Below, piece after piece: positions 1,256 to 15,048 of a stretch of 21,410 bases of DNA; position 1 is the stretch's first letter; the number at the start of each line of letters is the position of its first letter. The stretch comes from a virus. The position numbers and the translations under genes are program-made. Location: positions 1-21,410 of IMG/VR virus record IMGVR_UViG_3300045988_119030. One strand, written 5' to 3'. Below the pieces are notes generated by a model. The model worked only from the letters and a program-made list of their open reading frames with translations, searched no databases and was not told the DNA's origin.

Positions 1256-1257
1256 CA

Positions 1258-1507: not shown

Positions 1508-1618
1508 TTTTCTTATCTCCATTCAATTTATTTTTTGGAAAGGGTGGCGGTTGTTTCAGGCACAACCGCCAAAGCCATAGGAAAGGGGGAGAAAAACACG
1601 AACAAAAGTTCGGTTTTG

Positions 1619-1858: not shown

Positions 1859-1863
1859 TTCGT

Positions 1864-2217: not shown

Positions 2218-2545
2218 TTTTCTTTTTCTCCTTTTCTTGCTTATTCCACATTCTATCAAAGAACGCATTTGCGAGGACACGCTTGTAAAGGTTGTCAGGC
2301 ATGGGGCGCTCGCCGTGCTTGTTTCTCCATATCGCGGTGATTTTATCAATATCCGCGATATAGGCTGTAATGAGTGTGCCATCGGAAGCGCTACGAACGA
2401 GAAGAACACCTGTTGTAGTGATAGTGTAGAGAATATCGTCCTCAACGCTGTCGATATATGGTTCGCCAATTCCTACATTATCGTAGATGAAGAGCAGGCG
2501 GTCAATGCGGTCTTGCGTGGCATGTTTTGACATTTTGATAAGCAT
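2207..2545 (-). CDS. hypothetical protein (~112 aa, starting MLIKMSKH...)
   Basis: RBS AAAGAGGT-N7-ATG at 2545. Promoter at 2583-2611 immediately upstream. Confidence 0.55.
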   Translation of the reverse strand: MLIKMSKHATQDRIDRLLFIYDNVGIGEPYIDSVEDDILYTITTTGVLLVRSASDGTLITAYIADIDKITAIWRNKHGERPMPDNLYKRVLANAFFDRMWNKQEKEKKKNVR

Positions 2546-2582
2546 TTGTTTTACCTCTTTCTTTTCCTCTTGGATTGATTGT

Positions 2583-2611
2583 ATTATACCATATGGGGAG
2601 GGGCTTGTCAA
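2583..2611 (-). promoter_or_regulatory. promoter TTGACA-N17-TGgTATAAT for 2207-2545. The -35 lies at the centre of palindrome GGGGCTTGTCAAGCCCC (2600-2616).
   Basis: Minus strand reads aggggcTTGACAagcccctccccatatggTATAAT. Confidence 0.6.
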
Positions 2612-2617
2612 GCCCCT

Positions 2618-2767
2618 TTAATACAATTGTTCCCCATCGTGGTAGCGCTCATATTCCGCTTCAAGGAAGTCGAGAATAGTTTCAAAGTCGTCTGCGTCTG
2701 CGGGGTCGGCAAAGACCTTTTCAAAGACTTCGTTAGTGTGCCAATTGTGAACTCGAACAATATCCAT
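2618..2767 (-). CDS. small acidic protein, 49 aa (MDIVRVHNWHTNEVFEKVFADPADADDFETILDFLEAEYERYHDGEQLY). Not in the ORF track because under 60 aa.
   Basis: RBS AAGAAAGAGGTAAG-N-ATG. Sits between promoter 2798-2826 and the terminator/promoter palindrome at 2600-2616. Confidence 0.5.
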   Translation of the reverse strand: MDIVRVHNWHTNEVFEKVFADPADADDFETILDFLEAEYERYHDGEQLY

Positions 2768-2797
2768 TTTACTTACCTCTTTCTTGATTGTATATGT

Positions 2798-2826
2798 ATT
2801 ATATCATGCGAAAGGGCTTTTGTCAA
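2798..2826 (-). promoter_or_regulatory. promoter TTGACA-N17-TATAAT for small gene 2618-2767. The -35 is inside hairpin AAGGGCTT/AAGCCCTT (2813-2833).
   Basis: Minus strand reads aaagggcTTGACAaaagccctttcgcatgaTATAAT. Confidence 0.6.
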
Positions 2827-2844
2827 GCCCTTTTTCTTATTTTT

Positions 2845-3200
2845 TTATTCTTTTTCTCGAATGGAATAATAAACCTTATTCCCTCGCGGTCTGCGTTTGA
2901 GTTTATGGTCGAGGTATAACTGCATACAATACCAAGTGAATTTGCCGTTGGCATACTCATAGCCATACTTTTTGAATGCCATAAACTGCATTTCAGTCGG
3001 CGTGATAGGTCTGCCCGCCTCATTCAGCAGTTCAAAGACGAGTTTAATCATCTGCTGTTTTTTCCATTCGCGTTCCTCGCGGTCGGCTTTTAAGTCTCTT
3101 TCATACTTGTCGCAAGCGTGTTCCGCGATACTCAGATCAATGGGCGAGAGAGCGCCGACGCGATGGCCTTTTTCAAAACTTCATAAATATCCTTATTCAT
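2845..3200 (-). CDS. hypothetical protein with an apparent -1 frameshift at an A5 run (plus-strand T5 at 3169-3173). The upstream frame gives MNKDIYEVLKK..., the downstream frame continues GHRVGALSPIDL...MIKLVFELL...SIREKE (~118 aa if joined).
   Basis: RBS AAAGGAAAGGGG-N7-ATG at 3200 and promoter at 3231-3259 serve the 5' frame. The long 3' frame has no start or RBS of its own. The two frames join cleanly at G_AAA_AAG. Confidence 0.45.
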
Positions 3201-3230
3201 TGTAGTTCCCCTTTCCTTTACTATACCTGT

Positions 3231-3259
3231 ATTATATCATCTACTTCTGGATTTGTCAA
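3231..3259 (-). promoter_or_regulatory. promoter TTGACA-N17-TATAAT for 2845-3200
   Basis: Minus strand reads aaaagcccTTGACAaatccagaagtagatgaTATAAT. Preceded by terminator 3273-3297. Confidence 0.6.
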
Positions 3260-3272
3260 GGGCTTTTTGGAA

Positions 3273-3297
3273 AAAGAGGGAAAAATTTTCCCTCTTT
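3273..3297 (-). terminator. rho-independent terminator after 3300-3572
   Basis: Stem AGAGGGAAAA/TTTTCCCTCT, then T5. Confidence 0.6.
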
Positions 3298-3299
3298 AT

Positions 3300-3572
3300 T
3301 TATCCCCAATAGACCGAAAGAACGTTGTCAATGTAGCTGGCTTTATAACCATAATTCTGCATGATATCTTTGCAAGCCTGCCTGACCTTCTTGTCATTTA
3401 ATGAAGCAAGATTACACTCGTAAAGTGTTTCGCCCGTTCCTGCCACTCGCTCAATTTCTGGCATGATGTGGTCTTCGATGAACGCCCGCGCGAGGGCATT
3501 ATTTTTAGCTTGAATTTCTTTGCGAACTTCTTCGGCTTTGCGCGTCATTTCATAAGCATATTTAATTTCCAT
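3300..3572 (-). CDS. hypothetical protein (90 aa)
   Basis: ORF. RBS AAAGGAAAGGGAGAT. Promoter at 3605-3633 embedded in a terminator palindrome. Confidence 0.6.
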   Translation of the reverse strand: MEIKYAYEMTRKAEEVRKEIQAKNNALARAFIEDHIMPEIERVAGTGETLYECNLASLNDKKVRQACKDIMQNYGYKASYIDNVLSVYWG

Positions 3573-3604
3573 GTTGTTATCTCCCTTTCCTTTATTGTAT
3601 CTTT

Positions 3605-3633
3605 ATTATAGCATAGAGGGCTTGTTTTGTCAA
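3605..3633 (-). promoter_or_regulatory. promoter TTGACA-N17-TGcTATAAT for 3300-3572. The -35 is inside hairpin AGAGGGCTTG/CAAGCCCTCT (3617-3642).
   Basis: Minus strand reads agagggcTTGACAaaacaagccctctatgcTATAAT. Confidence 0.6.
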
Positions 3634-3651
3634 GCCCTCTATTTAATTTTT

Positions 3652-3960
3652 TTAGCAGTAGGCCAGATTCCCGCGCGCCCAGCCATATACGCTGATTTGA
3701 TTGCACGCCTTGCCGATTTCAAGCGCCTGCTTCTTGGTCTGCACCCTCTTGGACTTGTCAACATAATAAATGCCGTTCGCAAGCCACACACCGCAGTTTC
3801 CGCCGAAGTCCTTAACCGCGTTGATAGCTTCGCGGGCGGTCTTACATTCAACGCCGTTGGTAGCGACCTGCCAGCCGGACTTGTAGTTGACTTTCTTGCC
3901 ATATTTGAGGGTCATGCCGTCGTTTTCAACGAGCTTACGAATAGAACGAATGTTAATCAT
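3652..3960 (-). CDS. hypothetical protein (~102 aa, starting MINIRSIRKL...). The ORF-track N-terminal extension to 4122 is probably 5' leader.
   Basis: RBS AAAGGGAT-N7-ATG at 3960. Two promoters lie upstream in the leader, at 4012-4040 and 4132-4160. Confidence 0.5.
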   Translation of the reverse strand: MINIRSIRKLVENDGMTLKYGKKVNYKSGWQVATNGVECKTAREAINAVKDFGGNCGVWLANGIYYVDKSKRVQTKKQALEIGKACNQISVYGWARGNLAYC

Positions 3961-4011
3961 GTTGTTATCCCTTTCCGGTTTGGTAGGTTTTCCTTCCCTT
4001 ACTGTGATTAT

Positions 4012-4040
4012 AGTATAGCACCGATTCGGGATTCTGTCTA
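4012..4040 (-). promoter_or_regulatory. proximal promoter TAGACA-N17-TGcTATACT for 3652-3960
   Basis: Minus strand reads aaTAGACAgaatcccgaatcggTGcTATACT. Confidence 0.45.
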
Positions 4041-4101
4041 TTGACATTATGCACAAACTTTCGCCATAAAAATTGTTGAACTTGCCTATTGACACAAAAT
4101 T

Positions 4102-4128
4102 CCGGCCGTGCCTGGCGTGCACGGCCGG
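4102..4128 (-). promoter_or_regulatory. GC-rich hairpin (CCGGCCGTGC-N7-GCACGGCCGG) between tandem promoters in the leader of 3652-3960
   Basis: Perfect 10-bp stem. Sits directly after the -10 of promoter 4132-4160. Confidence 0.45.
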
Positions 4129-4131
4129 CCG

Positions 4132-4160
4132 ATTATATCATAAAGTTTTGAAATTGTCAA
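4132..4160 (-). promoter_or_regulatory. distal promoter TTGACA-N17-TgaTATAAT for 3652-3960. GC hairpin 4102-4128 sits immediately downstream.
   Basis: Minus strand reads gcctaTTGACAatttcaaaactttatgaTATAAT. Preceded by terminator AAAAATCTCCCCAAAAATGGGGAGATTTTTTT (4168-4199). Confidence 0.5.
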
Positions 4161-4167
4161 TAGGCAA

Positions 4168-4199
4168 AATATACAAAAAAATCTCCCCATTTTTGGGGA
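4168..4199 (-). terminator. rho-independent terminator after 4225-4473
   Basis: AAAAATCTCCCCAAAAATGGGGAGATTTTTTT. Confidence 0.6.
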
Positions 4200-4224
4200 G
4201 ATTTTTAATTCAAAAAATTTAATT

Positions 4225-4473
4225 TTAGCCATCAACACAAATAATGAGAACGTCATCTTTGGCTTTCAAACCGCTGACCGGCAGTCCCAGCACCCATTCT
4301 TCACTTGCGCCCAAAACATCACCATTCAGAGTCATGCGACCTTTGCGGTCTTTGAGATAGCGACCGCAAGTGTTTTCATTTATCACTTCAATGCCGTTCC
4401 CCTCATAGAACATCAGCGCGCCCTTTACCAGACCAATCACATTTTTAACCATGCCCAAAGTCATTTTTGTCAA
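4225..4473 (-). CDS. hypothetical small beta-rich protein (82 aa). By eye it weakly resembles EutN/CcmL-family barrel proteins (…GASEEWVLGLPVSGLKA…). Unverified.
   Basis: ORF. RBS GAAAGAAG. Promoter at 4514-4542. Terminator at 4564-4597 upstream. Confidence 0.55.
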   Translation of the reverse strand: MTKMTLGMVKNVIGLVKGALMFYEGNGIEVINENTCGRYLKDRKGRMTLNGDVLGASEEWVLGLPVSGLKAKDDVLIICVDG

Positions 4474-4513
4474 CTTCTTTCGTCTTTAATATCGTTCCTC
4501 TTGGAACAATTAT

Positions 4514-4542
4514 AGTATAGCACAAGGTATAACAAAAATCAA
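4514..4542 (-). promoter_or_regulatory. promoter TTGATT-N17-TGcTATACT for 4225-4473
   Basis: Minus strand reads cctaTTGATTtttgttataccttgTGcTATACT. Confidence 0.55.
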
Positions 4543-4563
4543 TAGGTAAAATGTATAAAAAAC

Positions 4564-4597
4564 TCGGCAGGATTTTGTGTATCCTGCCGAGTTTTTT
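4564..4597. terminator. bidirectional intrinsic terminator (A-run, stem CTCGGCAGG/CCTGCCGAG, T7). Terminates 4597-4791 on the minus strand.
   Basis: aaaaaaCTCGGCAGGattttgtgtatCCTGCCGAGttttttt. Confidence 0.65.
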
Positions 4598-4791
4598 TAC
4601 TCTTCCCAACTCTCGATGACTTCACCGGTCATTGCGTCGATAATGTCAACCGAGAGGACGTTGTCCGCGTCCATAAACTTCTGTCCGAGGGCATATGCAT
4701 TTTCCTGTCCCGCGACAGACACTTCATAGCGATAGCGATTATTATCGCCAGCTTTGTAATTGTAGTAGTTAACAGAAACAATAAATAACAT
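4597..4791 (-). CDS. hypothetical protein (64 aa)
   Basis: ORF. RBS AAAGGGGAT-N7-ATG. Promoter at 4822-4849 (TTGACA-N16-TGgTATAAT). Confidence 0.6.
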   Translation of the reverse strand: MLFIVSVNYYNYKAGDNNRYRYEVSVAGQENAYALGQKFMDADNVLSVDIIDAMTGEVIESWEE

Positions 4792-4821
4792 TTGGTTTAT
4801 CCCCTTTCTTTTTATACTCTT

Positions 4822-4849
4822 ATTATACCATAGTTTCGGGATTTGTCAA
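4822..4849 (-). promoter_or_regulatory. promoter TTGACA-N16-TGgTATAAT for 4597-4791
   Basis: Minus strand reads cctaTTGACAaatcccgaaactaTGgTATAAT. Confidence 0.6.
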
Positions 4850-4877
4850 TAGGTTTTTTGAAAAAAGTTTGAAAAAA

Positions 4878-4901
4878 GATTGGAGCATTACTGCTCCAAT
4901 C
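4878..4901 (-). terminator. terminator after 4888-5163. The stop codon is in the loop.
   Basis: GATTGGAGCA-gtaa-TGCTCCAATC, then T6 on the minus strand. Confidence 0.6.
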
Positions 4902-5163
4902 TATTCACCGGATAGTCGATTGGTTTAACCTCAATCGGCGAGTTAGCCCAGTCATAGGAAACGCGGAAAAATTCAGCACAGTGGTAACTAAAATCAGCCC
5001 AGCCAAAAGTCGCAAGATGCGATTTCCAATCTCTGAAATATGGTTCTAATTCTTGCGTGATATAGAGCGTTTCTTCGAGCCGGTCTAAAAGTTTTTCATT
5101 CTTCGCCACATGGAAAACTGCGGTGGTCTTAGTCTCAGCGTCGGTGATGATGTATGTTTTCAT
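4888..5163 (-). CDS. hypothetical protein (~91 aa, starting MKTYIITDAE...)
   Basis: RBS AAAAGGAGC-N7-ATG at 5163. Promoter at 5194-5221. The last codons plus TAA lie in the terminator hairpin at 4878-4901. Confidence 0.55.
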   Translation of the reverse strand: MKTYIITDAETKTTAVFHVAKNEKLLDRLEETLYITQELEPYFRDWKSHLATFGWADFSYHCAEFFRVSYDWANSPIEVKPIDYPVNRLEQ

Positions 5164-5193
5164 TTGAAAAGCTCCTTTTCTTTTGATACTACC

Positions 5194-5221
5194 ATTATAG
5201 CACACTTTTGGAATTTGTCAA
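5194..5221 (-). promoter_or_regulatory. promoter TTGACA-N16-TGcTATAAT for 4888-5163
   Basis: Minus strand reads ccctaTTGACAaattccaaaagtgTGcTATAAT. Confidence 0.6.
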
Positions 5222-5239
5222 TAGGGAAAATGAAAAAAA

Positions 5240-5261
5240 AGAGAAGTTTTTCAACTTCTCT
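5240..5261 (-). terminator. terminator after small peptide gene 5251-5355
   Basis: AGAGAAGTT-gaaa-AACTTCTCT flanked by an A8 / T8 run. Confidence 0.6.
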
Positions 5262-5355
5262 TTTTCAGTTTCTTTTCTGCCCATTCAATGAGTGCGCCCG
5301 CGCCGATTGTCCCAAAGTAAATGAAAAGTAAAACTAAACCGTCATGCGTGCTCAT
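5251..5355 (-). CDS. small hydrophobic peptide, 34 aa (MSTHDGLVLLFIYFGTIGAGALIEWAEKKLKKRS). Single TM helix plus basic tail. Not in the ORF track.
   Basis: RBS GGAGG-N8-ATG. The ATG begins 1 nt after the TAA of upstream gene 5356-5484 (TAAATG). Its TGA stop lies inside the terminator at 5240-5261. Confidence 0.5.
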   Translation of the reverse strand: MSTHDGLVLLFIYFGTIGAGALIEWAEKKLKKRS

Positions 5356-5484
5356 TTAATATTCCTCCACATACTCTGTAAAAACAAGCTCCCAGTCAGG
5401 GCCAAGATCCGGAGCTTTGCAGTATCGCGACTGTCGAATGTCATGCTCATTAGTGATTTTGTTGATAAACTCGAATTCATACAT
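5356..5484 (-). CDS. hypothetical small protein (~42 aa, starting MYEFEFINK...)
   Basis: RBS AAAAGGAGAT-N8-ATG at 5484. Promoter at 5517-5545. Confidence 0.45.
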   Translation of the reverse strand: MYEFEFINKITNEHDIRQSRYCKAPDLGPDWELVFTEYVEEY

Positions 5485-5516
5485 TTTTATTATCTCCTTT
5501 TTTTTACTGTACCAAT

Positions 5517-5545
5517 AGTATAGCAGATAATAGGGCATTTGTCAA
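5517..5545 (-). promoter_or_regulatory. promoter TTGACA-N17-TGcTATACT for 5356-5484 and 5251-5355
   Basis: Minus strand reads ggtaTTGACAaatgccctattatcTGcTATACT. Confidence 0.55.
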
Positions 5546-5562
5546 TACCATTTATAAAAAAA

Positions 5563-5588
5563 ATGTACGAGGTTTAATCCTCGTACAT
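5563..5588 (-). terminator. terminator after 5574-5870. The stop codon is in the loop.
   Basis: ATGTACGAGG-attaaa-CCTCGTACAT, then T8 on the minus strand. Confidence 0.6.
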
Positions 5589-5870
5589 TTCCATTAACGA
5601 TTTGATTTTTTCGATTGTATTTTCAATTTCTTCTACATAGTCGGTTTGCTCCTCACTTGCGCGCATGGCCTGTTCATATGCGTCATAGATAGTTTCGCAC
5701 TGTTCACGGGTGTAGTCTTCTTCTGGAGCGTGTTCCATGGTGACGACTGCTGTCCAAGCGAGCGTTTCTTTATCGTCAAGGTCATCGGCTTTTTCCGCGG
5801 CAGTGGCAAGCTCATGTTCGAGGCGCGTCTTTTCGAGCGAGAGGGTCTTGAGAAAATCCTTATTAGTCAT
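5574..5870 (-). CDS. hypothetical acidic protein (~98 aa, starting MTNKDFLK...)
   Basis: RBS AAAAGGAGAT-N8-ATG at 5870. Promoter at 5903-5930. Stop codon in the loop of terminator 5563-5588. Confidence 0.55.
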   Translation of the reverse strand: MTNKDFLKTLSLEKTRLEHELATAAEKADDLDDKETLAWTAVVTMEHAPEEDYTREQCETIYDAYEQAMRASEEQTDYVEEIENTIEKIKSLMEMYED

Positions 5871-5902
5871 TGTGGTGTATCTCCTTTTCATTTGATGCCT
5901 TT

Positions 5903-5930
5903 ATTATACCACTTCTGGACTGAATGTCAA
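5903..5930 (-). promoter_or_regulatory. promoter TTGACA-N16-TGgTATAAT for 5574-5870
   Basis: Minus strand reads cctaTTGACAttcagtccagaagTGgTATAAT. The iteron cluster lies immediately upstream. Confidence 0.6.
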
Positions 5931-6022
5931 TAGGTTTTTGAAAAAAATATTTATTCATCAGGGCTGTATAAATATTCATGTATAAATATTCATTTTCGGG
6001 TGTATAAAGGCGACTGGCATAA

Positions 6023-6053
6023 TGCACAAAATGGTTTCAAAATTTTTGTGCAA
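6023..6053. promoter_or_regulatory. palindrome TGCACAAAA-N13-TTTTGTGCA. Candidate operator.
   Basis: aaTGCACAAAAtggtttcaaaattTTTTGTGCAat. The same half-site recurs at 7694-7739 and 4050-4057. Confidence 0.5.
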
Positions 6054-6072
6054 TATAACTATTGCAAAACTC

Positions 6073-6097
6073 GGCGCGCTGCGGCCCACAGCGCGCC
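6073..6097 (-). promoter_or_regulatory. GC-rich hairpin (GGCGCGCTG-N7-CAGCGCGCC) with a short minus-strand U-tract, embedded in the iteron/palindrome region
   Basis: aaaactcGGCGCGCTGcggcccaCAGCGCGCCggcc. Confidence 0.4.
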
Positions 6098-6179
6098 GGC
6101 CAAATGCATATGTATGATTATTCATGTATATTCATTGCATATTCATTGTATATTTATTCATACATAATATGCGAAAATA

Positions 6180-6204
6180 GAGAGAGACTTAATAAGCCTC
6201 TCTC
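6180..6204 (-). terminator. hairpin terminator overlapping the stop of 6189-6554
   Basis: GAGAGAG-N11-CTCTCTC, followed on the minus strand by TATTTTCGC. Modest U-tract. Confidence 0.4.
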
Positions 6205-6554
6205 CATACCTTGATTATTTCATCATCTGCTATATCATCTGTGTCATTGTCGTTTATCCACAAAAGCAGAAAATCATTATCATCAATGGTCATATTCTCA
6301 ACTTCCCATTGGTTGCCGCGTTCGTCCAGTAGCGTGATGGTGTTACCATTTCGGGAAGCGACCTCTGCACCGATAAAGCGTATGCTTCCTCTCTCTGTAC
6401 CAGCGCCACACCATTCATCTAATGCGGTGAGGTCATAGGACTGCGGCGCTTCCTCACAGGCTTCCGCGGTTGTGTGGTCGTGGAATGGGCCGAAGAAAGA
6501 CACGGAGAGAATGATGGCAATGGCCATGGTGATGATTTTGGAAACGTTTTTCAT
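6189..6554 (-). CDS. predicted secreted protein (121 aa). The N-terminus looks like a signal peptide (MKNVSKIITMAIAIILSVSFFG…AEA); mature part acidic.
   Basis: ORF. RBS AAGAAAGAGGTAAAAC-ATG. Terminator hairpin at 6180-6204 overlaps the stop. Confidence 0.55.
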   Translation of the reverse strand: MKNVSKIITMAIAIILSVSFFGPFHDHTTAEACEEAPQSYDLTALDEWCGAGTERGSIRFIGAEVASRNGNTITLLDERGNQWEVENMTIDDNDFLLLWINDNDTDDIADDEIIKVWREAY

Positions 6555-6576
6555 TTTGTTTTACCTCTTTCTTACT

Positions 6577-6720
6577 TTATAGGTTAGTAGCGATAGTGAC
6601 AACAGCAATAAGCATGAGCGTGCTTGAGACAGCTTTACCTACATTCTTGCTATCTATGGCATAGACAAAATTATATGCGCTTATAGCAGTAAGCACAATG
6701 ATAGCGGCGATGATAGACAT
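6577..6720 (-). CDS. small membrane protein, 47 aa, 2 hydrophobic segments (MSIIAAIIVLTAISAYNFVYAIDSKNVGKAVSSTLMLIAVVTIATNL). Not in the ORF track.
   Basis: RBS AGAGGGGAG-N8-ATG. Lies between 6751-7224 and 6189-6554 on the same strand. Confidence 0.45.
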   Translation of the reverse strand: MSIIAAIIVLTAISAYNFVYAIDSKNVGKAVSSTLMLIAVVTIATNL

Positions 6721-6750
6721 GGCATATGCTCCCCTCTTTGAGCGAGTGGG

Positions 6751-7224
6751 TTAAACCCACTCGCTGAATAGCTCGCTGATGAAGTCATCGTGGACATCAT
6801 CAGGCAGTTGGTCGATGGTACACTCATAGGTGCTTACCACGGTAAGCGATGAGCCATTTTCAAGGTTCTCGCGCTCAAACTTATCCCGTTCACCAGATGA
6901 AAGAAAAAATGCGGTATAATCGTAAGTGTCTTCTCCATCATTGATGGAATAATCCACCACCTTAAAGCGCATCTTGTTCCAGAGGTTCGCTATGATGGAA
7001 AGATCCATAGCCAGCTCTTCCTCGCGGCGGACAGCTTCGAGAGACGCCTTATACTTGCGCCATGCGGCTACCGTAAAGTCTCTTATGCCGCACCCGATAA
7101 GACAATGGTATTCCTCTAAGTCTTTGATAACCAGTTTGCGTCCCTCGCGCACCATATCCCAAGCATCTTCTGCCATTGCGTTGATGGTGACAGCATCATA
7201 TTTATGCAAGCCCTGAATTTTCAT
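6751..7224 (-). CDS. hypothetical protein (157 aa)
   Basis: ORF. RBS GGAAGGG. The TAA stop sits in the loop of hairpin GCGAGTGGGTT/AACCCACTCGC (6741-6766). Confidence 0.55.
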   Translation of the reverse strand: MKIQGLHKYDAVTINAMAEDAWDMVREGRKLVIKDLEEYHCLIGCGIRDFTVAAWRKYKASLEAVRREEELAMDLSIIANLWNKMRFKVVDYSINDGEDTYDYTAFFLSSGERDKFERENLENGSSLTVVSTYECTIDQLPDDVHDDFISELFSEWV

Positions 7225-7305
7225 TGTATAGCCCTTCCGCGCTTTTTGCGCTATCGTGTTATATGTAGGTATGTTCCCCCATGTGGGGAGTGAGGGCTTG
7301 CGCCC

Positions 7306-7599
7306 TCACTTTGCAATCTTTGTAGTAACGGAAGCCGCACGCGGCGCGCCAGTCTTCTTGTACTTATCAAAGCACTCGGCGTAGAGTTTCGGCGCTTTGT
7401 TGCGGAACATCACCGTGTCGAGCGTTTCAGTAGCCTTGCCACCCTTGCCAACAATAACAGTAAACTTATTGTAAGTAAAGGTAACGCTTTCGCCGTTAGC
7501 TTCCTCGCGGGCTTCTGCCTTGAGCAATTCTAACTGTTCCTTGAGCGCGTCTATCTGCGCGGAAATCTCGCACATTTTTTTAATTTTATTGTTCGTCAT
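7306..7599 (-). CDS. hypothetical protein (97 aa). First gene of the leftward module.
   Basis: ORF. RBS GAGGAT. The TGA stop lies within terminator stem GTGAGGGC/GCCCTCAC (7291-7312). Confidence 0.55.
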   Translation of the reverse strand: MTNNKIKKMCEISAQIDALKEQLELLKAEAREEANGESVTFTYNKFTVIVGKGGKATETLDTVMFRNKAPKLYAECFDKYKKTGAPRAASVTTKIAK

Positions 7600-7693
7600 T
7601 TTTGAATCCTCATTTCATGCAATTTACTGTTCGGTGTTCCGCCGTTCAGCATGGTTACATGGTAGCAGATTCAGCCACGGAATACAATTGACA

Positions 7694-7739
7694 GATTGCA
7701 CAAAGATTTGTTTTGTACGGGGCGGGTTTTTGTGCAATC
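7694..7739. promoter_or_regulatory. palindrome GATTGCACAAA-N24-TTTGTGCAATC. Second copy of the candidate operator.
   Basis: Perfect 11-bp arms. Lies in the 400-bp noncoding region upstream of the first leftward gene. Confidence 0.5.
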
Positions 7740-7777
7740 TACCGCCGGGCGGCACCCTTGCATCATACCTTTGCATT

Positions 7778-7801
7778 TTTATTCACTCAAAAATGAATAA
7801 A
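7778..7801. repeat. inverted repeat TTTATTCA-N8-TGAATAAA (the iteron motif in palindromic arrangement)
   Basis: ttTTTATTCActcaaaaaTGAATAAAac. Confidence 0.45.
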
Positions 7802-7895
7802 ACCTGCATAGAGGGGGGTGTATTTCGGGAAAAATAAATTTTTATTTATCGTTTTTTCTTTTGCCTGGTCAAAACACAATCTAAATCAATTTTCA

Positions 7896-7935
7896 ATTTC
7901 AAATCACGAAATAATTTAAAATTTCAAATTACGAC
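7896..7935. repeat. imperfect direct repeat ATTTCAAAT(C/T)ACGA(A/C) x2, spaced 25 bp
   Basis: ATTTCAAATCACGAA at 7896-7910. ATTTCAAATTACGAC at 7921-7935. Confidence 0.4.
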
Positions 7936-8025
7936 TTCTTTTTTCTACCTCTTTTAGGCTTCTCACCCCACATAAAAGTGTATAATCCAGAAGTAGCAGA
8001 ATATGTAGCTTTCTGCTGATACTTT

Positions 8026-8421
8026 TTAGCAGCTGCTTTCAAGGGGTTGAGGGGTTTCCGCATTTAATTTTTCCTCCATATATTCGATTAATTTATCTTT
8101 ATATTTACAACTATCAATATATCTATTAATAGTATCTATATCATATTTTTCCATTAAGTGCTCTAATACATATTTGTATTTATTTAACTGATATTCTTCT
8201 TGTTCTTCTTTAGTGCTTAATTGGGCCTTTTCCGCGTCTGATAAAGGTTTATAAGTAATTGTTCTTGACCCATTATCCTTTTGCTCAATACGTATTGTTT
8301 TAAATAATTTCCAATCTCTTACAAAAGGATCTTTATCTCTTGTGGCGTTAAAATATTCTTGTTCTAATCTAAATATTACTGCGTCTATCCCTCTTACTTC
8401 AAAAGGCTGGTTCCGCCTCAT
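8026..8421 (-). CDS. hypothetical protein, AT-rich (~131 aa from MRRNQPFEV...). The track start at 8454 is also possible.
   Basis: ORF. Internal RBS GGGAGG-N9-ATG at 8421. Confidence 0.45.
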   Translation of the reverse strand: MRRNQPFEVRGIDAVIFRLEQEYFNATRDKDPFVRDWKLFKTIRIEQKDNGSRTITYKPLSDAEKAQLSTKEEQEEYQLNKYKYVLEHLMEKYDIDTINRYIDSCKYKDKLIEYMEEKLNAETPQPLESSC

Positions 8422-8638
8422 TTTCAATATCCTCCCATTCAAATGTTCCATCATCTAATTCATATACAAATGCCTGTTTATAGAATGATGAAACAATTCC
8501 ATCATTTGCGATTCCTTTTGGACTATTTTTCGCATCATGGAAACAATTATAAACAATTAGTCCTTGCGTTTCATATCGCGAAAAATCTACTGCCCTTCCC
8601 TCAAAATCATAATTATAAAATATGTTTAACAATAGCAT
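8399..8638 (-). CDS. hypothetical protein (79 aa), AT-rich. Overlaps the start of 8026-8421.
   Basis: ORF. A leftward promoter candidate at 8821-8849 gives a long leader. Confidence 0.4.
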   Translation of the reverse strand: MLLLNIFYNYDFEGRAVDFSRYETQGLIVYNCFHDAKNSPKGIANDGIVSSFYKQAFVYELDDGTFEWEDIENEAEPAF

Positions 8639-8677
8639 ACACTCATATTGTGCGATTGGCCATTTATTTAATTCTTT

Positions 8678-8705
8678 TTGCTAATTTGCCATTTTTTGGT
8701 ATAAT
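8678..8705 (+). promoter_or_regulatory. candidate rightward promoter TTGCTA-N16-TGgTATAAT upstream of a 10-codon ORF (8746-8778) with RBS AAAGGAG
   Basis: Plus strand reads tttTTGCTAatttgccatttttTGgTATAAT. Confidence 0.3.
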
Positions 8706-8820
8706 ACCCAAAAGGCTTTTCTATATAACCATAAAAAAAGGAGTGATGCTACTAATGCACAACTCAATAATACAATAAAAATAATTTCCATAAATACTCT
8801 TTTTCTTTTTTCTTATAATA

Positions 8821-8849
8821 ATAATAAAATAAAAAATAAGAAATGTCAA
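8821..8849 (-). promoter_or_regulatory. candidate leftward promoter TTGACA-N17-TATTAT for 8399-8638 / 8026-8421. Divergent from the rightward promoter.
   Basis: Minus strand reads cgacTTGACAtttcttattttttatttTATTAT. Long AT-rich leader. Confidence 0.35.
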
Positions 8850-8931
8850 GTCGTGGAGCGTAATTGGGCAAAAGTTATTTGTTTTGTTAAAAAAATTTTT
8901 AAATATAAAAAGAAAAAATTTTAAATGAAAC

Positions 8932-8960
8932 TTGACAAAAAAAATTTTTTCGAGTATAAT
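8932..8960 (+). promoter_or_regulatory. consensus promoter TTGACA-N17-TATAAT for the first rightward gene (8985-10040)
   Basis: Plus strand reads aaacTTGACAaaaaaaattttttcgagTATAAT. GGAGG RBS and ATG 25 nt downstream. A-rich upstream. Confidence 0.6.
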
Positions 8961-8984
8961 ATAAATATAGACTGGAGGTAAAAA

Positions 8985-10040
8985 ATGATAAAACTTGATT
9001 ATTCTTTACAAACTCCAGAAGAAAGAAATCAATTAGTCGAACAAATTTTGGCTGATAATCCAGATCCGCCTGAAAAGTATTTAGAAATTTTAGCAGACTA
9101 TTTGGTTCTTTGTATGGAGAAACAAGAAAAAAAGGAGAAAAAATTATTAACTGATAATCGTATGGCTACAGTTAATAAGCGTGAGACTTCTTTTGAAGGT
9201 CTTGTTTCCCAACTCGAAAATGGCGAAGATGGAATTTATAATTTAATTACAGATAATAGAAATACAATATTTCAACCACATATTACAATTACAAAAAAAG
9301 ATTTAGAAGAGATACCAAGTTTAAATTAGTTAAGAGAAGCCATTAATGTTTGGGAGGCTAAATTAAAAGTAACAGAAGGAAAAGATGCTTTTGTTATTAA
9401 AAAGGCTCTTATTGAAATGCGTAAAGATTAGTATGTTATGAAAAATGCTTATCGTCGTCCAATAGTGCCTACAAAATTAACCAGATCAAAGTCTTATATT
9501 CCATTAGATGATAAAACATTTATTTTTGATGATGATGGTTTTCCCATTCCTGATGGAATTAGTTTATTAAGACCTGAAATATGTTCTGCGGTTTTATGTA
9601 ATTATTCCCGACTAAAACAAGATAGTTGGGGCGAATATGATAAAGATTTATGGTATTTAATGGAGGATTTTGATAAGCTTTGTGATAAAGCCTTAGCTAA
9701 TTATCCTCTTTATGATAGAATCGTTGAATATAAAATTGATGGTTTACAAAATATTGACATTCAAGAGAAAATACAAATGGAATTTGGTATTAAACATAGT
9801 CTTGAATATATTTCAAGTTTATGGCGTAATAAAATTCCAAAATTAATTGCTTCGACTGCGGAAGATGAATATTTAGATAATTATTATTTAAATGTTGAAA
9901 AAGGTAAATATAAAAAATGTAGTCGTTGTGGTAAAATAAAATTAGCTCATAATAAATATTTTAGTAAAAATAAAACAAGTAAAGATGGCTTTTATAGTAT
10001 TTGTAAAAGTTGTCGAAATTCTAAGGCCAAAAAATCTTAA
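8985..10040 (+). CDS. zinc-ribbon protein (352 aa if TAG is read through). Two in-frame TAGs at 9327-9329 and 9432-9434. C-terminal CxxC…CxxC motif. Function unknown.
   Basis: Single frame 8985-10040, interrupted only by TAG and ending in TAA. Consensus promoter at 8932-8960. RBS GGAGG-N6-ATG. Confidence 0.6.
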
Positions 10041-10089
10041 TGTTGTCCTTTTGTTTATAATAAATAGTTGAAAGGAGAATATTTTATTT

Positions 10090-11277
10090 ATGGCTGAAAC
10101 ATATTATTGCGAAAAATGTAATCGCACAATGAATGGCACGGAATTCTATTCATCTAATAATTTAGAAAAATATCCTAATGATGGTAAATTTCCTGTGTGC
10201 AAAAAATGTATGACAATGCACGTCGATAATTGGAATCCAGATACTTATTTATGGATTTTACAAGAAGCGGATGTTCCTTATGTTCCAGATGAATGGAATA
10301 AATTAATGGAAAAATATGGGCGCGATCCGCAGTCTATGACCGGTATGACGATTCTTGGACGTTATTTGTCAAAAATGAAACTCAAATAGTTTAAAGATTA
10401 TCGTTGGAAAGATACAGAATTTTTATAGTAGATGGCGAATAATAAATTAGAGCAAACTATGAAGCGTCAAGGATATGATGCTCAATAGATTGCAACCGCT
10501 ATTAAAAAAAGTTCTATTGCTATTCCAGAAGGAGAACTAAAAGAGCCGGTTTATGCTCCACCGCCTAATGCCCCTACGGAAGATTATTTTGCACAATAGA
10601 GTGGTGAAGTTGAACAAGAATTAGACTTAACTGATGAAGACCGCACTTATTTAAGACTTAAATGGGGCAAGACTTATAAACCTGAAGAATGGGTTAAGCT
10701 TGAATAGTTGTATGAAGAAATGATGGCTTCTTATGATATTCAAGGTGCCGGACATAAAGATACGCTAAAATTAATATGTAAGACATCTTTAAAGGCAAAT
10801 CAATTGATCGATATTGGTGATATTGAAGGTTTCCAAAAGATGAGCAAAGTATACGATAGCTTGATGAAGTCTGGTAAATTTACTGCTGCTCAAAATAAAG
10901 CAGAATCAGGTGAATTTGTTGATTCAATTGGCGAATTAATTGAATTATGTGAAAAAGAAGGATATATTGAAAGATATTATGTTGAATAGCCACATGATAA
11001 AGTGGATTTAACTATTCAAGATATGCAACGTTATACTCGCACTCTTATTGAAGATGAAACTAATATCAGCACAATGGTAGAAAAAGCTTTGCGCGAAAAT
11101 GCTAAAGAAGATGAAGAGAAAGCAAAGAACGCGGAAAGCGATATCGTTGATGATGCTGATTTAAGTATTGAAGAACTTGAAAAAACTATTAAAGATAGTG
11201 ATTACGCGGATTTTGAGGAATTTAAAGAATAGGAGTCCGCGCAAGATAATGAGTTCTTATAGAGTTTGGATAAATAA
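10090..11277 (+). CDS. protein with N-terminal CxxC…CxxC zinc ribbon (~395 aa). Nine in-frame TAGs including tandem TAG-TAG at 10431-10436. Possibly small terminase or another DNA-packaging protein by position.
   Basis: One continuous frame joining ORFs 10090-10389, 10708-10989 and 11002-11232. All interruptions are TAG. The TAA stop overlaps the terL ATG (TAATG). Confidence 0.5.
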
Positions 11278-13016
11278 TGGCATTACAAGATTTACTGTAG
11301 TTAAGTGATAGCCGTAGAAAAATAGGTCTATCACCGGAGCGAGTAGAAGCGGTAATGCCCACTATCCGCAAATACGTTGCCTTTTGGAGAGAATATCCTG
11401 ATTTATTTGTAGATTTTATGGTTCGAGGAAGACGCACTGAAATAAAAGATGGAGAATTTAACTTTTATTTTTATTAGAGAGTATTTCTCCGTTCTGTTAT
11501 GCGTTATTAGTATGTTTACGCGGTTTTTCCTCGTGCTTATTCCAAATCATTCTTGTCTGTTATGGCATTAATGATTAGATGTATTTTATATCCTGGTGCG
11601 CATTTGTTCGTTACTTCTGGAGGTAAAGAACAAGGTGCTAGTATTCTTCATGATAAAGTTCAAGAAATATGTGAACTTATTCCAAGCTTTAATCGAGAAA
11701 TTGATTGGAGCCGAGGAAAAACTCTTGAAGGAAAAGATAAAGTTAGATATGTGTTTAAAAATGGTTCAGTTTTGGATAACCTCGCAGCCCGTGAAAGCAC
11801 TCGTGGTTAGCGTCGTCATGGTGGACTAATGGAAGAATGTGTTGGTATTGATGATACCATTCTTCGTGAAGTTATTATTCCTGTTATGGCAATTTCTCGT
11901 AGAGCTAAAGATGGCACTACTAATGAACAAGAGCCATTAAACAAATCACAAATCTATATTACTACTGCTGGTTATAAGGGCACATTTCCTTATGATAGAC
12001 TTATTGGTTTCTTAGTTCGTATGGTAACTTAGCCTGATCGTTGTATGGTATTAGGCGGAACATGGCGAACTCCTGTTGCAGTAGGATTACAAAGTAAAAC
12101 ATTTATTACTGACCAAAAGAATGAAGGAACTTATAATGAAGCTTCATTCGAACGTGAATACGAGTCTAAGTGGTCAGGAACTGTTGAAGATGCTTTCTTT
12201 AATGGAGAGCATTTTGATAGAAATAGAAAACTATTATAGCCTGAATATGAAGCTTCTGGACGTGCGGGCGCGCAAGCTTATTATGTGCTTTCAGTAGATG
12301 TAGGTCGTAAGGGATGCGATTCAGTAGTTTGTGTATTTAAAGTAACACCACAAGCTCAAGGTCCAGCTATTAAATCTTTAGTAAATATGTATACTATGTC
12401 AGATGATCATTTTGAAGATTAGGCTATTAAATTAAAGAAATTATTTTATAAATATAAAGCTAAAACTTTGGTTATAGACGGTAACGGTTTAGGTATTGGA
12501 CTTTTGGATTATATGGTAAAATCTCAAAATGATGAAGACGGTGAATTTTTACCTGATTTTGGTGTTGAGAATGATGATGATGGATATTATAAAAAATATC
12601 GTACACAAAATACTCAATTTGATGCTATGTATGTTATTAAAGCAAATGCTCCAATAAATACTGAATGTCATGCTAATGCTCAGACTCAATTACAGGCGGG
12701 TAAGGTAAAATTCTTAATAGATGAGAGAACAGCTAAAGAAAAATTATTAGCTACTCAAAAAGGTTCAAAAATGACTTCTGAACAAAGGGCAGATTATTTA
12801 AAACCATTTACTTTAACCTCCATATTAAAAGAAGAAATGATGAATTTACGCGAAGAAAATGAAGGTATTAATATTATCCTAAAATAGGCAAATCGCGGAA
12901 TTCGTAAAGATAAATTTTCGGCTTTTGAATATGGATTATATTATTTAAAACTTGAAGAAGATAAAAAGAAAAAACGTAAAAAGTTTAATGCGGCTGATTG
13001 GTGCTTTTTAAATTAA
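11277..13016 (+). CDS. terL: terminase large subunit (~579 aa). Eight in-frame TAG codons, at 11298, 11475, 11508, ~11806, ~12030, 12237, 12420 and 12885. Ends with TAA.
   Basis: Frame-0 continuity across ORFs 11553-11810, 11829-12032, 12045-12239 and 12468-12887. N-terminal ATPase Q-motif FY*RVFL followed by a Walker-A-like PRAYSKS. Walker-B-like STRG*RRHGGLMEE. C-terminal nuclease motifs YVLSVDVGRKGCDSVV and VIDGNGLGIGLLD. Confidence 0.8.
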
Positions 13017-13028
13017 GGAGGGTGGAAA

Positions 13029-13385
13029 ATGCGTGCTTCAAGAGGAGAAATTAAAATTGAAGAAATCTTAGAAGAAGCAGGACTACCTTTTAAAATGGAA
13101 TATATTTTTCCAGATTTAAAAAGCCCAAGCGGGCGTCCGCTTCGTTTTGATTTTGTTATATTTGATGATGATGGAAAAATTGATTTCATTATTGAGTATT
13201 AGGGAAAATAGCATTATGAAGCCAGTTCTAAATTTGGTGGAAAACGCGGTTTATACCAGTAGCAATATAATGATAATCAAAAAAGACGTTTTTGCGCTTT
13301 ACATGATTTTAGATTAATAGAGATTCCATATACCGACGAAAACCTTATTTCTTATGATTATATAATGAAATTAGCAGGTTATTAA
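13029..13385 (+). CDS. Vsr/DUF559-like endonuclease-fold protein (118 aa; restriction-endonuclease-like fold). Probably a free-standing homing-type endonuclease. Three in-frame TAGs.
   Basis: RBS AAGGAGGG-N6-ATG. Motif RPLRFDFVIF…IDFIIEY*GK*HY resembles the DUF559 …DF…iE.DG.QH signature. This is from memory, not a search. Confidence 0.5.
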
Positions 13386-13398
13386 AGGAGGTGGAACT

Positions 13399-15048
13399 TT
13401 GGATACGCAAGATCGTAATGATTAGATTCACGCTAAAGGTTTTGATATTTATAATAGTCGTTATGAATATAATTATAATGATACTATGGATTATGCTAAT
13501 AGAAAAATAAAAGTTGGCACAAAAACTTTAGATGATGCTATTTTAAAACTTGGTGATTATAGTAAGATTAGATACCCAGGTCAAACTCGTATTATCACGA
13601 AACCTGATGTGCTTCGCGCGCTCGCAGAAAGAGATCTAAATGCTTTGCGATATATTTCTAATTTTTATTATGATATAAGTGGTGTATATCAACGAGTTTG
13701 TAATTATGTTGCTTTTTTATACCGCTATGATTGGTATATCGCGGCCGAAACTTATGATGATAGTGTAAAAGAAGAAAAAGTTTTAAAAGATTTTTATAAA
13801 ATGTTGAATTATTTTGATAATAGTTATATTAAAAAGATTTGTGGAGATATTGCTTTACAAGTCGTTAAAAATGGATGCTATTATGGATATATAGTTCCTT
13901 CAGAGAAAAATCTAATTTTACAAGAATTGCCAGTTAGATATTGTAGAACACGTTATAGTGTAAATAATACCCCAGTTGTCGAATTTGATATGCGATTTTT
14001 TGATACTTTTAGAGATATGAATTACCGCTTAAAAGTATTAAAATTATTCCCAGAAGAATTTGCTAAAGGTTATGTTTTATATAAGCAAGGAAAACTTGCT
14101 TTAGAAGAAGCGGTTGGATGCTAGCATACTGGTAGTTGGTATGTTCTTGAGCCAGAAAATTGTATTAAATTTAATATTAATAATAGTGATGTTCCTATTT
14201 TTGTAAATTCCATTCCTACTATTATGGATTTAGATGCAGCGCAAGATCTTGACCGCAAGAAACAAATGTAGAAGTTGCTTAAAATTTTAGTCCAAAAGCT
14301 CCCAATGGATAAAAATGGTGATTTGATATTTGATGTTGATGAAGCCAGAGATATCCATAATAATGCCGTTTAGATGTTATAGAGGGCTATTGGAGTAGAT
14401 GTTTTAACTACATTTACTGATGTAGATTCTATTGATATGTCTGATAAGAATACTACTACAACGACAGATGATTTAGCTAAAGTTGAACGTAGTGTTTATA
14501 ATTCATTAGGTATTTCATAGAATTTATTTAATACTGATGGTAATATGGCTTTAGAAAAATCAGTGTTAAATGATGAATCTACAATAAGAAGTTTAATTTT
14601 ATAGTTTAATATATTCTTTAATAGAATTATTGAGAAAAAGAGTAGTAATAAAAAATATAATTTTAGATTTTATTTATTAGAAACTACTCAAAATAATTAT
14701 CAAACACTTTCTAAAATGTATAAAGAACAAGCGCAAATGGGACAATCAAAATTATTGTCTTAGATTGCTCTTGGACATTCATAGAGTTTTATTCTTAATG
14801 CAGCTCATTTTGAAAATGAGATTTTACATTTAAGTGAAATTATGATTCCTCCTCTTATGAGTTCTACTATGGGTAGTGAAGATATTTTGGGTTTAAAAGG
14901 TTCATCATCTAATAATAAAACTCAAAATAATTCAGGAAGTTCAGGTTCTGGAACTACTAAAGCTTCTAATGGCGAAGCAGGACGTCCGGAAAAACCTGAT
15001 GATTAGAAAAGTGAAAAAACTATTCAAAATAAAGAAGCAATGAAATAA
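13399..15048 (+). CDS. putative portal protein (~549 aa, about 10 in-frame TAGs). The call is by position after terL and by size. The start may be TTG at 13399 (RBS AAGGAGGTG-N5) or ATG at 13486.
   Basis: Continuous frame 1 from 13399 to TAA at 15046-15048, interrupted only by TAG. No motif recognised by eye. Confidence 0.4.

Follow-up and report, generated by a model that had tools for sequence, protein, structure and literature searches.

Within a 21,410-nt stretch of phage DNA (the window; IMG/VR record IMGVR_UViG_3300045988_119030, corresponding to positions 9282-30691 of its source contig, the 190,642-bp ENA contig ERZ27260930 k119_3975), the G+C content (GC) falls abruptly at approximately position 7775, close to where an array of small leftward genes meets the conserved packaging and structural genes. 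The module at 1-7774 is the window's portion of a ~17-kb island holding 37 genes. The best explanation of the step, given about an even chance, is that it marks the junction of two temporal expression classes in one genome, each written in its own codon dialect. This programme reading is supported by a contrast that is mostly synonymous, is kept in relatives down to 71% identity, and tracks both promoter architecture and the use of TAG as a sense codon. Judged from its sequence, the phage is a widespread ~190-kb human-gut phage with SPbeta/phAss-like structural genes, in which TAG is read as glutamine (Gln); its host is probably a member of the Bacillota. Coordinates are window positions, and labels of the form L031 denote IMG/VR loci or strains of relatives.

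Sliding windows placed GC at 38-50% from position 1 to ~7750 and at 25-37% across most of the remaining DNA. A maximum-likelihood search located the best single changepoint at 7774, with 42.2% GC to the left vs. 32.6% to the right, and recursive segmentation divided the window into segments of 40.8% (1-6304), 47.9% (6305-7774), 27.8% (7775-10191), and 33.6% GC (10192-21410). With 1-kb flanks, the step amounted to 18 points at 7770-7840, and the runner-up anywhere in the window to 10 points. The observed log-likelihood ratio of 97.7 was compared with 1000 block shuffles, whose maxima were 24.8, 55.7, and 78.5 for block sizes of 100, 500, and 1000 bp, respectively. Since neither the 18-point local step nor a likelihood ratio that no shuffle matched leaves much room for chance, the step is considered both real and sharp. 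The original prediction had described a GC drop near 8000; the drop is stronger than described and well beyond the ~5 points against which it had been set, and its position moves ~130-250 bp to the left, into the intergenic stretch at 7600-7928.

The contrast lies mainly in synonymous positions. Pooled over the left genes, the genes at 7929-8791, and the right genes, GC at first codon positions (GC1) was 0.495, 0.407, and 0.453, at second positions (GC2) 0.332, 0.311, and 0.322, and at third positions (GC3) 0.509, 0.259, and 0.220, respectively, leaving a GC3 gap of ~29 points (0.51 vs. 0.22) between left and right; distinct codon-usage signatures for the two halves had been anticipated. At four-fold degenerate sites, C, G, T, and A made up 0.33, 0.21, 0.33, and 0.12 in the island, 0.11, 0.08, 0.54, and 0.27 in the late non-capsid genes, and 0.15, 0.01, 0.74, and 0.10 in the capsid genes. 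The glutamine codons were divided among CAA (0.24), CAG (0.76), and TAG (0) in the island, among CAA (0.58), CAG (0.05, 7 codons), and TAG (0.37, 50 codons) in the late non-capsid genes, and among CAA (0.42), CAG (0.58), and TAG (0) in the capsid genes. In effect, CAG has been largely supplanted by TAG in the ordinary (non-capsid) late genes.

Reading TAG as sense turns the rightward open reading frames, broken up under the standard code, into closely packed long genes (8985-21318), as the original prediction had proposed. The terminase, portal, and sigma-like genes are intact only under this reading, and the alignment columns that contain TAG correspond mainly to Gln in homologues. TAG does not serve as a terminator in the 12 rightward, the 3 AT-rich leftward, or the 37 island genes, all of which stop at TAA or TGA (24 TAA and 13 TGA in the island). 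Within the island there are 48 out-of-frame TAG triplets and none in frame. Because the left module has neither an in-frame TAG nor a TAG stop, it reads identically under either code, and its earlier assignment to the standard code is therefore not demonstrable. On the other side of the step, the in-frame TAG of the leftward gene at 8399-8791 aligns to an ordinary-codon Gln in L040 and L042, and elsewhere in this gene further strains have TAG at different Gln positions. TAG use thus starts about where the AT-rich DNA starts, which is at odds with three elements of the original prediction: a standard code for the AT-rich leftward genes at 8026-8638, a code break at the divergent promoters (8640-8985), and an offset between the code break and the GC break.

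The coupling between TAG use and silent-site composition extends beyond the window. In a set of 91 genes (~57 kb) from the same species, comprising the island, the window, the tail genes of L013, and the region beyond the island, GC3 was correlated with TAG use (Spearman rho -0.61, p = 1e-10): 16/16 TAG-containing genes had a GC3 of <=0.28, and the TAG-free genes had a median GC3 of 0.44 (n=75). The low-GC3 genes that lack TAG are capsid and tube genes, presumably highly expressed. GC3 forms a gradient from the island (0.53) through the other TAG-free genes (0.39) to the late genes (0.21). Among the TAG-free genes of the island and the region beyond it, 0/67 stop at TAG; taking the 9.7% TAG share among out-of-frame stop triplets as the baseline, we estimate p ~0.02 for zero TAG stops in 37 genes and ~0.001 in 67.

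The island also differs from the late module in its regulatory architecture. Over its 17 kb, 17 perfect and 13 near-perfect TTGACA-17-TATAAT promoters of the sigma-A type were found, nearly all with an extended -10 TG, and 30/30 of these strong promoters are intergenic, directed at a gene, and located ~30 nt ahead of an ATG, as is each of the promoters listed for the left module in the table below. Terminator-like hairpins number 38 in the island vs. 18.4 in shuffles. The 12.5-kb late module holds one such promoter, at 8932 ahead of the sigma-like gene, with no enrichment over shuffles. Alignment of the 30 promoter regions showed that they form repeat families (D1-D3) of 47-65 nt with a composite motif of stem-loop, promoter, Shine-Dalgarno sequence, and ATG; in several repeats the -35 hexamer lies within the terminator hairpin (GGGC-TTGACAAA-GCCC). 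The island is thus a cluster of small genes with many strong sigma-A promoters and strong ribosome-binding sites, as in SPO1-type host-takeover modules. PHROG and Pfam searches of the island proteins returned almost no matches (a few weak ones to PHROG), so the functions of these proteins are not assignable. No bacterial housekeeping genes were found in the island, which instead carries small ORFan genes (open reading frames without known relatives) and phage-type promoter cassettes.

The changepoint coincides with the edge of the region that is variable between strains. Among same-species strains, colinearity leftward from the late module stops at 7798-7896 in 10 loci and at 7506-7608 in 4 loci, and crosses the boundary in 3; further strain breakpoints lie at other intergenic sites, with positions located to intergenic regions rather than to individual motifs. 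At 13 distinct same-species loci, the accessory cassette immediately left of the step (6574-7800) is missing or has been exchanged for other DNA, and colinearity through it was seen at only three (L031, L033, and L041). L024 has different genes at this position, and the replacement cassettes of other strains are all GC-rich as well. Because this minority-strain cassette is the GC-richest stretch, the step is especially abrupt in the present window. Read as minus-strand RNA, the boundary region folds better than its shuffles (z = -3.25), and no canonical terminator was recognised in it for the AT-rich leftward operon. Near the border there is no tRNA gene, no recognisable integrase-type open reading frame (the flanking ones being small and unannotated), and no att-like feature, only a 25-bp tandem repeat; no Rfam family matched in the window at gathering thresholds.

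The composition contrast is conserved across the lineage. For this comparison, 80 IMG/VR loci whose sigma-like protein is a relative with 71-99% identity were collected together with flanks of 10 kb. In nearly all 80, the upstream leftward module had 40-52% GC vs. 26-38% in the structural module; across 23 distinct lineages, upstream GC was mostly 0.37-0.46 (with three outliers at 0.30-0.36) and late GC was 0.29-0.38. Across these lineages, the TAG share of Gln-type codons rose as late GC3 fell (rho -0.45, p = 0.03) and the CAG share fell along with it (rho +0.66, p = 7e-4), and recoding occurs where the late module is most AT-rich, in agreement with the order proposed by Borges et al. (low GC before recoding) but at the scale of modules within a genome. 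Four relatives with 71-78% identity in the sigma-like protein (L092, L087, L055, and L067) are almost un-recoded, TAG accounting for 0-3% of their Gln-type codons vs. 23-42% in the same late genes of the others; on this sequence comparison, the predicted genetic code varies within the lineage. Since several of these four nearly un-recoded lineages still keep a step of 5-8 points, the GC step is independent of recoding.

Several results favour an island composition that is maintained rather than recently imported. Island-gene orthologues whose amino-acid identity is under 60-80% still have a GC3 of 0.45-0.6, and orthologues of the AT-rich leftward genes still have a GC3 of 0.10-0.27. The gene at 3652-3960 is both the most widely conserved in the island (3312 protein clusters) and the highest in GC3 (0.69). 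Singleton variants at third positions of the island comprised 46 GC-to-AT and 13 AT-to-GC changes, a small set of 59 isolated singletons that serves as supporting evidence only, filtered to remove the confounding effects of a divergent strain and of imports in clusters. The bias implies a mutational equilibrium GC3 of ~0.22 vs. the actual 0.50; because rare variants are AT-biased, a GC3 of ~0.5 in the island is not the mutational equilibrium. In the late module, the rare variants show an AT-to-GC excess without explanation, which may reflect imports from GC-richer relatives. A recently acquired, un-ameliorated island is not supported, there being no decay toward the recipient in the diverged orthologues and the most widespread gene having the highest GC3. 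The signature of an acquired island (atypical composition and patchy spread) fits the cassette at 6574-7800; the whole island is present and GC-rich in nearly all relatives.

From these observations, we infer that the left genes would be expressed first, with their composition kept by selection for expression in a naive host, and that the late genes would have been freed from this constraint. The left array would be an immediate-early module of the host-takeover type, with dozens of small genes arranged singly or in pairs, each served by its own near-consensus host sigma-A promoter and closed by a terminator, in cassettes that are shuffled between strains. Silent sites in these putative early genes would be held at a GC3 of ~0.5, with CAG preferred for Gln and TAG kept out of sense and stop positions alike; because TAG is avoided in both roles, the early genes would be readable by an unmodified host and also after suppression is switched on. 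In the conserved core (two or three leftward genes and the sigma-like, packaging, head, and tail genes), silent sites would have drifted to a GC3 of ~0.2, and TAG would have taken over from CAG.

Several points weigh against two expression classes as the source of the step. The putative temporal class of the left genes is taken solely from their promoter matches, and the TAG-containing sigma-like gene is also preceded by a perfect sigma-A-type promoter (8932), so promoter type alone fails to separate the two classes. The silent sites of the island gain both C and G, including the G-ending four-fold codons that are nearly absent from the highly expressed capsid genes; the shift looks more like a general compositional one than like classic selection for optimal codons. 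GC is also raised in intergenic DNA of the island (0.37 vs. 0.22-0.31 elsewhere), although that DNA is packed with GC-stem terminators, and the GC-to-AT excess among rare variants is equally consistent with decay in progress and with a balance of mutation and selection (or biased conversion). Relatives with little or no GC step were also found (L087-L091, L097, L098, and L102). No tRNA gene, and so no CUA suppressor, was found in the window or in the ~57 kb of same-species sequence, and tRNA searches of about 60 loci were likewise negative. Finally, a scan of genome contigs for a host returned only metagenome-assembled genomes (MAGs) with inconsistent labels (Mollicutes, Clostridia, Lachnospiraceae, Muribaculaceae, and Bacilli; mostly Bacillota/Clostridia), and these matches are probably binned phage contigs.

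Some of these points would be expected if the step were the edge of a recombination hotspot, where early cassettes are drawn continually from a GC-richer pool (phages of the same host, such as phAss-like ones at 44.5% GC, or the host itself) and their turnover outpaces AT drift. Such mosaic ancestry by ongoing flux is possible, but we lean against it. The changepoint matches the strain synteny breakpoints, the GC-richest 1.2 kb is a rare accessory cassette, and the left-end protein (65-538) is present in 14 contigs only, vs. the 1692 blocks of a structural protein; the repeated promoter and terminator motifs could mediate shuffling, as T4-type PeSLs do (PMC2839356, PMC4122927). The joint rise of C and G at silent sites, the raised intergenic GC, and the AT-biased rare variants, as decaying DNA would show, also fit, as does the outcome of blastn searches against GenBank phages, in which the left half found no match and the right half found a 12-kb faecal phage fragment and, weakly, the terminase regions of Enterococcus and Geobacillus phages. 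However, orthologues in lineages only 71-80% identical hold their GC3 at 0.45-0.6, island GC changes little from lineage to lineage, the top GC3 belongs to the island's most widely conserved gene, and the TAG-free region beyond the island, which is not built of cassettes, is also GC-richer than the late genes. Standard-code imports should additionally bring some TAG stops, and there are none in either the 37 island genes or the 67 TAG-free genes. The original prediction had offered modular or mosaic ancestry and different codon adaptation of early and late programmes as explanations, and had raised the possibility that the halves match different phage lineages. Concerning ancestry, the coincidence of the changepoint with breaks in strain colinearity and the rarity of the cassette stand, and a one-off foreign acquisition is unsupported, with GC-rich replacement cassettes, the highest GC3 in the most conserved gene, and 0 island genes ending in TAG. 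The adaptation explanation agrees with a contrast that is synonymous, conserved, and aligned with promoters and TAG, the expression order being read from promoters only. The two halves do differ in their GenBank matches, but IMG/VR joins both in one lineage, and the missing match of the left half reflects database coverage.

GC-biased gene conversion, in which recombination among the repeated promoter/terminator cassettes fixes GC alleles independently of translation, is unlikely. The island is the recombination-active part of the genome, C and G increase jointly at its silent sites, and its rare variants are AT-biased despite a GC-richer standing composition, which would also be expected under selection; conversion leaves the avoidance of TAG stops unexplained, and GC3 takes intermediate values in the TAG-free DNA past the island, where the cassette architecture is missing. 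To our knowledge, biased gene conversion has not been demonstrated in phages, which counts further against it. A step of 10-20 points beside terminase and portal genes, with no match for the left half among GenBank phages, is also the expected look of a chimeric assembly or of a bacterial chromosome flanking a prophage. Such an origin is highly improbable and was rejected: the source contig shares the junction with a 190,610-bp scaffold assembled from a different sample and with a Logan contig, the ~5% divergent genomes L031, L033, and L041 are colinear across it, and the step recurs in dozens of relatives. More phage DNA follows on the far side of the island, in ~190-kb contigs cut at differing points, and the island lacks housekeeping genes just as its boundary lacks an integrase, a tRNA, and an att-like feature. 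Equally remote is a strand or replication asymmetry, by which the step would arise from a switch of coding strand or replication direction in the divergent region. GC skew and AT skew do change sign near 8750-8850, where transcription diverges, but the GC-content step lies ~1 kb to the left of this switch, and skew alters the balance of G and C rather than G+C. The leftward genes at 8026-8791 are on the same strand as the island and yet AT-rich, a composition that contradicts this explanation and led to its rejection.

Returning to the two expression classes, a further and decidedly tentative proposal, which we consider rather improbable, is that the whole synonymous dialect, and not TAG alone, acts as a translational timing and compatibility barrier. 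The early genes (GC3 ~0.5, CAG, TAG-free) would be readable in a naive host, and the late genes (TTA, ATA, AGA, GGA, and TAG for CAG) would be read efficiently only after the pool of tRNAs and release factors had been remodelled. If so, phages would exchange genes within two separate pools, one AT-rich and TAG-using and the other GC-richer and TAG-free, and the un-recoded relatives would show the order of events, from AT drift of a module through loss of CAG to capture of TAG.

Differences in codon usage between early and late genes, segmental GC heterogeneity in phages, and recoding restricted to late genes are already known. New in this lineage are how large and sharp the step is, that it is conserved across the lineage, its coincidence with the junction of core and variable regions, the complete absence of TAG in both roles from the GC-richer genes, and the replacement of CAG by TAG. 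Codon-usage classes by time of expression were reportedly described in T4 by Cowe and Sharp in 1991. Early/late differences have since been documented in phages and attributed in part to the tRNA pool and GC content (Mioduser, Goz & Tuller 2017, PMC5683454). The present case is alike in that synonymous codons differ within one phage, with temporal classes that are inferred here; it differs in that the gap is very large (GC3 0.29), sharp within ~100-200 bp, conserved in the lineage, and linked to whether a reassigned stop codon is present. In phage lambda, long segments lie ~10 GC points apart, which is usually read as modular ancestry, and the structural arm is GC-rich with no code change. The window is opposite to lambda, the structural arm being AT-rich and the contrast conserved in the lineage.

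According to a preprint on recoded gut phages, early genes use the standard code and late genes are recoded, and low GC is proposed to precede recoding (Borges et al., bioRxiv 10.1101/2021.08.26.457843). The present phage resembles the phages of that preprint in using TAG for Gln in structural and late genes, in the lack of in-frame stops in its other genes, and in a code that differs among close relatives. Unlike the account given there, which in the passages searched treats GC per whole genome, the contrast reported here is between modules of one genome, TAG specifically supplants CAG, and the non-recoded genes lack TAG stops; the ~190-kb SPbeta-like lineage was matched to none of the clades named there. 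The closest complete GenBank genome is phAss-1 of the proposed Phassvirus (OQ749652), a code 15 phage from the human gut with Clostridia as predicted hosts (Babkin et al. 2023, PMC10607447), whose major capsid protein is 50% identical to that of the window in tblastn, compared to 22-27% for SPbeta-like Bacillus and Staphylococcus phages. Its genome has 136 kb, a GC of 44.5% that is reported per genome only, and three CUA suppressor tRNAs (PMC10607447). In the phAss-1 sequence, joined from three segments for this analysis, the TAG-dense giant genes have a GC3 of 0.20-0.27 and the remainder 0.45-0.7, the same coupling of low GC3 and TAG as in the present phage; its capsid region is GC-richer and nearly TAG-free, and its genome is smaller (136 kb vs. 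~190 kb). The left module had no blastn match in the GenBank phage collection that contains phAss-1, protein-level homologues in phAss-1 not having been searched for.

SPO1's module for host takeover is a terminal cluster of ~26 small early genes with strong promoters and ribosome-binding sites that is served by host sigma-A RNA polymerase (Stewart et al. 1998, cited in PMC6873191). The island resembles it with 37 small genes and ~30 strong sigma-A-type promoters in 17 kb, as far as sequence alone can tell, and differs in that PHROG searches of the island proteins named no SPO1 gene. We know of no report of a GC step at the SPO1 module. In T4-type PeSL cassettes, a stem-loop, an AT-rich tract, sigma-70-type -35/-10 elements, a Shine-Dalgarno sequence, and an ATG flank small variable open reading frames (PMC2839356, PMC4122927), and GC content is given per genome only in one of these papers (PMC4122927). 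As with PeSLs, the composite motif of the island is repeated through a variable region that undergoes insertions, deletions, and replacements between close strains; unlike PeSLs, it occurs with a Gram-positive type of host and in another phage family, and it has the -35 hexamer inside the hairpin in some copies.

Recoded gut phages are abundant, and gene maps have so far been the main basis for arguing how two codes come to be used within one infection cycle. In this lineage, genes that avoid TAG completely and keep GC-rich silent sites stand in sharp contrast to AT-rich neighbours in which CAG has given way to TAG. Because close relatives span almost no recoding to heavy recoding, the path from AT drift through loss of TAG stops to TAG capture is testable gene by gene. 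Annotation with a single code per contig can wrongly merge or split the TAG-containing leftward gene, and such contigs can be mistaken for low-GC bacteria during binning, as a MAG labelled 'Mollicutes' that contains one relative illustrates. If the difference in composition proves to be ordinary mosaicism, the step would be a well-documented but routine module junction.

The features of the window are listed in the following table; gene identities were taken from PHROG searches and from precomputed Pfam matches on the source contig and relatives.

Features of the 21,410-nt window on both sides of the GC step (aa, amino acids)
Feature	Positions	Strand	Remarks
GC-richer module	1-7774	-	20 small leftward genes (42-160 aa), 42.2% GC, GC3 0.51, TAG-free
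Perfect promoters, TTGACA-16/17-TGnTATAAT (8)	5930-5903, 5221-5194, 4849-4822, 4160-4132, 3633-3605, 3259-3231, 2826-2798, 2611-2583	-	
Promoters matching 11/12 positions (4)	5545-5517, 1286-1258, 596-568, 59-31	-	
Accessory cassette	6574-7800	-	genes 6577-6720, 6751-7224, 7306-7599; ~48% GC, GC-richest stretch
Boundary intergenic region	7600-7928		changepoint 7774, synteny breakpoints 7798-7896, inverted repeats 7697-7741 and 7778-7801, 25-bp tandem repeat 7883-7934
Leftward gene	7929-8063	-	44 aa, AT-rich conserved core
Leftward gene	8026-8421	-	131 aa, AT-rich conserved core
Leftward gene	8399-8791	-	130 aa, in-frame TAG 8681-8683 (codon 37) read as Gln
Divergent promoter region	8792-8984		16-25% GC
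Leftward promoter, TTGACA-17-TATTAT	8849-8821	-	
Rightward promoter, perfect TTGACA-17-TATAAT	8932-8960	+	
Sigma-factor-like protein, C-terminal zinc ribbon	8985-10040	+	351 aa; GC3 0.14; phrog_5767 'sigma factor', E = 9e-55
YonG-like	10090-11277	+	Pfam family YonG_N
Large terminase	11277-13016	+	
DUF2726-like	13029-13385	+	118 aa, 3 TAGs; bit score just under Pfam threshold
Portal	13486-15048	+	
YonD-like	15058-16641	+	Pfam family YonD_N
Capsid-block gene	16659-17576	+	
YonB-like major capsid protein	17594-18700	+	
Capsid-block gene	18787-19380	+	
Further late genes	19400-19972, 19929-20270, 20254-21318	+	16 in-frame TAG; GC3 0.20-0.27

Among the leftward genes at 7929-8791, GC3 is 0.22-0.41 per gene. 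The first rightward gene, encoding the sigma-like protein, has in-frame TAG codons at 9327-9329 and 9429-9431 (codons 115 and 149), and without suppression it would yield a 114-aa fragment. Position-specific gating of this gene by TAG was considered and rejected: the TAG positions vary across lineages (mostly aligned to Gln) and four lineages have none, and because the positions are thus neither conserved nor always present, such gating is unlikely. The following block (10090-16641) is AT-rich and contains 32 in-frame TAG in total. The DUF2726-like gene sits between the terminase and portal genes, is only 96 aa in L015, and could be a nuclease-like insertion. The capsid block (16659-19380) has no TAG in ~870 codons, a GC3 of 0.21-0.32, and T at 74% of four-fold sites; AAG and CAG are favoured, and ATA and G-ending four-fold codons are nearly absent. 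The most highly expressed genes seem to avoid TAG and A-ending codons even late in infection. According to Pfam, the SPbeta/phAss-like structural set comprises homologues of YonB (capsid), YonD, YonG, and YomU/V/W (tail).

With respect to abundance, one structural protein of the window was indexed in 1692 blocks, so the phage is very common in the human gut; the contigs reach ~190 kb, and some ~380 kb. The L014 and L019 scaffolds, at 380,007 and 383,447 bp, are ~2x the ~190-kb genome and may be assembled concatemers or tandem duplicates. Two contigs of this phage group, L121 (CAMELE010000001.1) and L132, were placed in public MAGs under the names 'uncultured Mollicutes bacterium' and 'Muribaculaceae', labels that probably result from mis-binning or misclassification of low-GC recoded phage DNA.

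Within the island, a promoter subfamily of the form TTGACA-17-TGaTAAAAT occurs six times (family D18; window 4102-4160 and 1222-1286, and L003 11049, 13928, 16470, and 18743), in each case running directly into a GC-rich hairpin (GGCCGG...), after which 150-770 nt of leader precede the next ATG; these elements could be small RNAs, 5' stabilising stem-loops, or attenuators. Just past the left end of the window, the island gene at L003 10539-10991 encodes a 150-aa protein with a MazE/AbrB-type antitoxin domain and is kept in all listed strain variants.

In an AT-rich patch at the island's far end (L108 12300-13800), 22-bp iteron-like repeats (AGAAAATTTTGACCA, 3 and 5 copies) flank a leftward gene of 207 aa with 6 TAGs. 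The start of the source contig (L003 19600-19819) carries a different short-repeat array (CAATTTTCAGTAATTTCTA...) at the island far end, and several contigs, including the source contig, begin within ~100 bp of each other at this array, others reading through it. Candidate roles of this repeat region are those of a replication origin, of a partition site, or of a genome end. The patch gives way to TAG-free genes of unchanged direction that span at least 16 kb, with a GC3 of ~0.39 and a single consensus promoter. On the coding strand of this TAG-free region, the motif TTGATT-17-TATAAT recurs (L138 3718, 6480, 10502, 15308, and 19794) and may represent a second promoter class.

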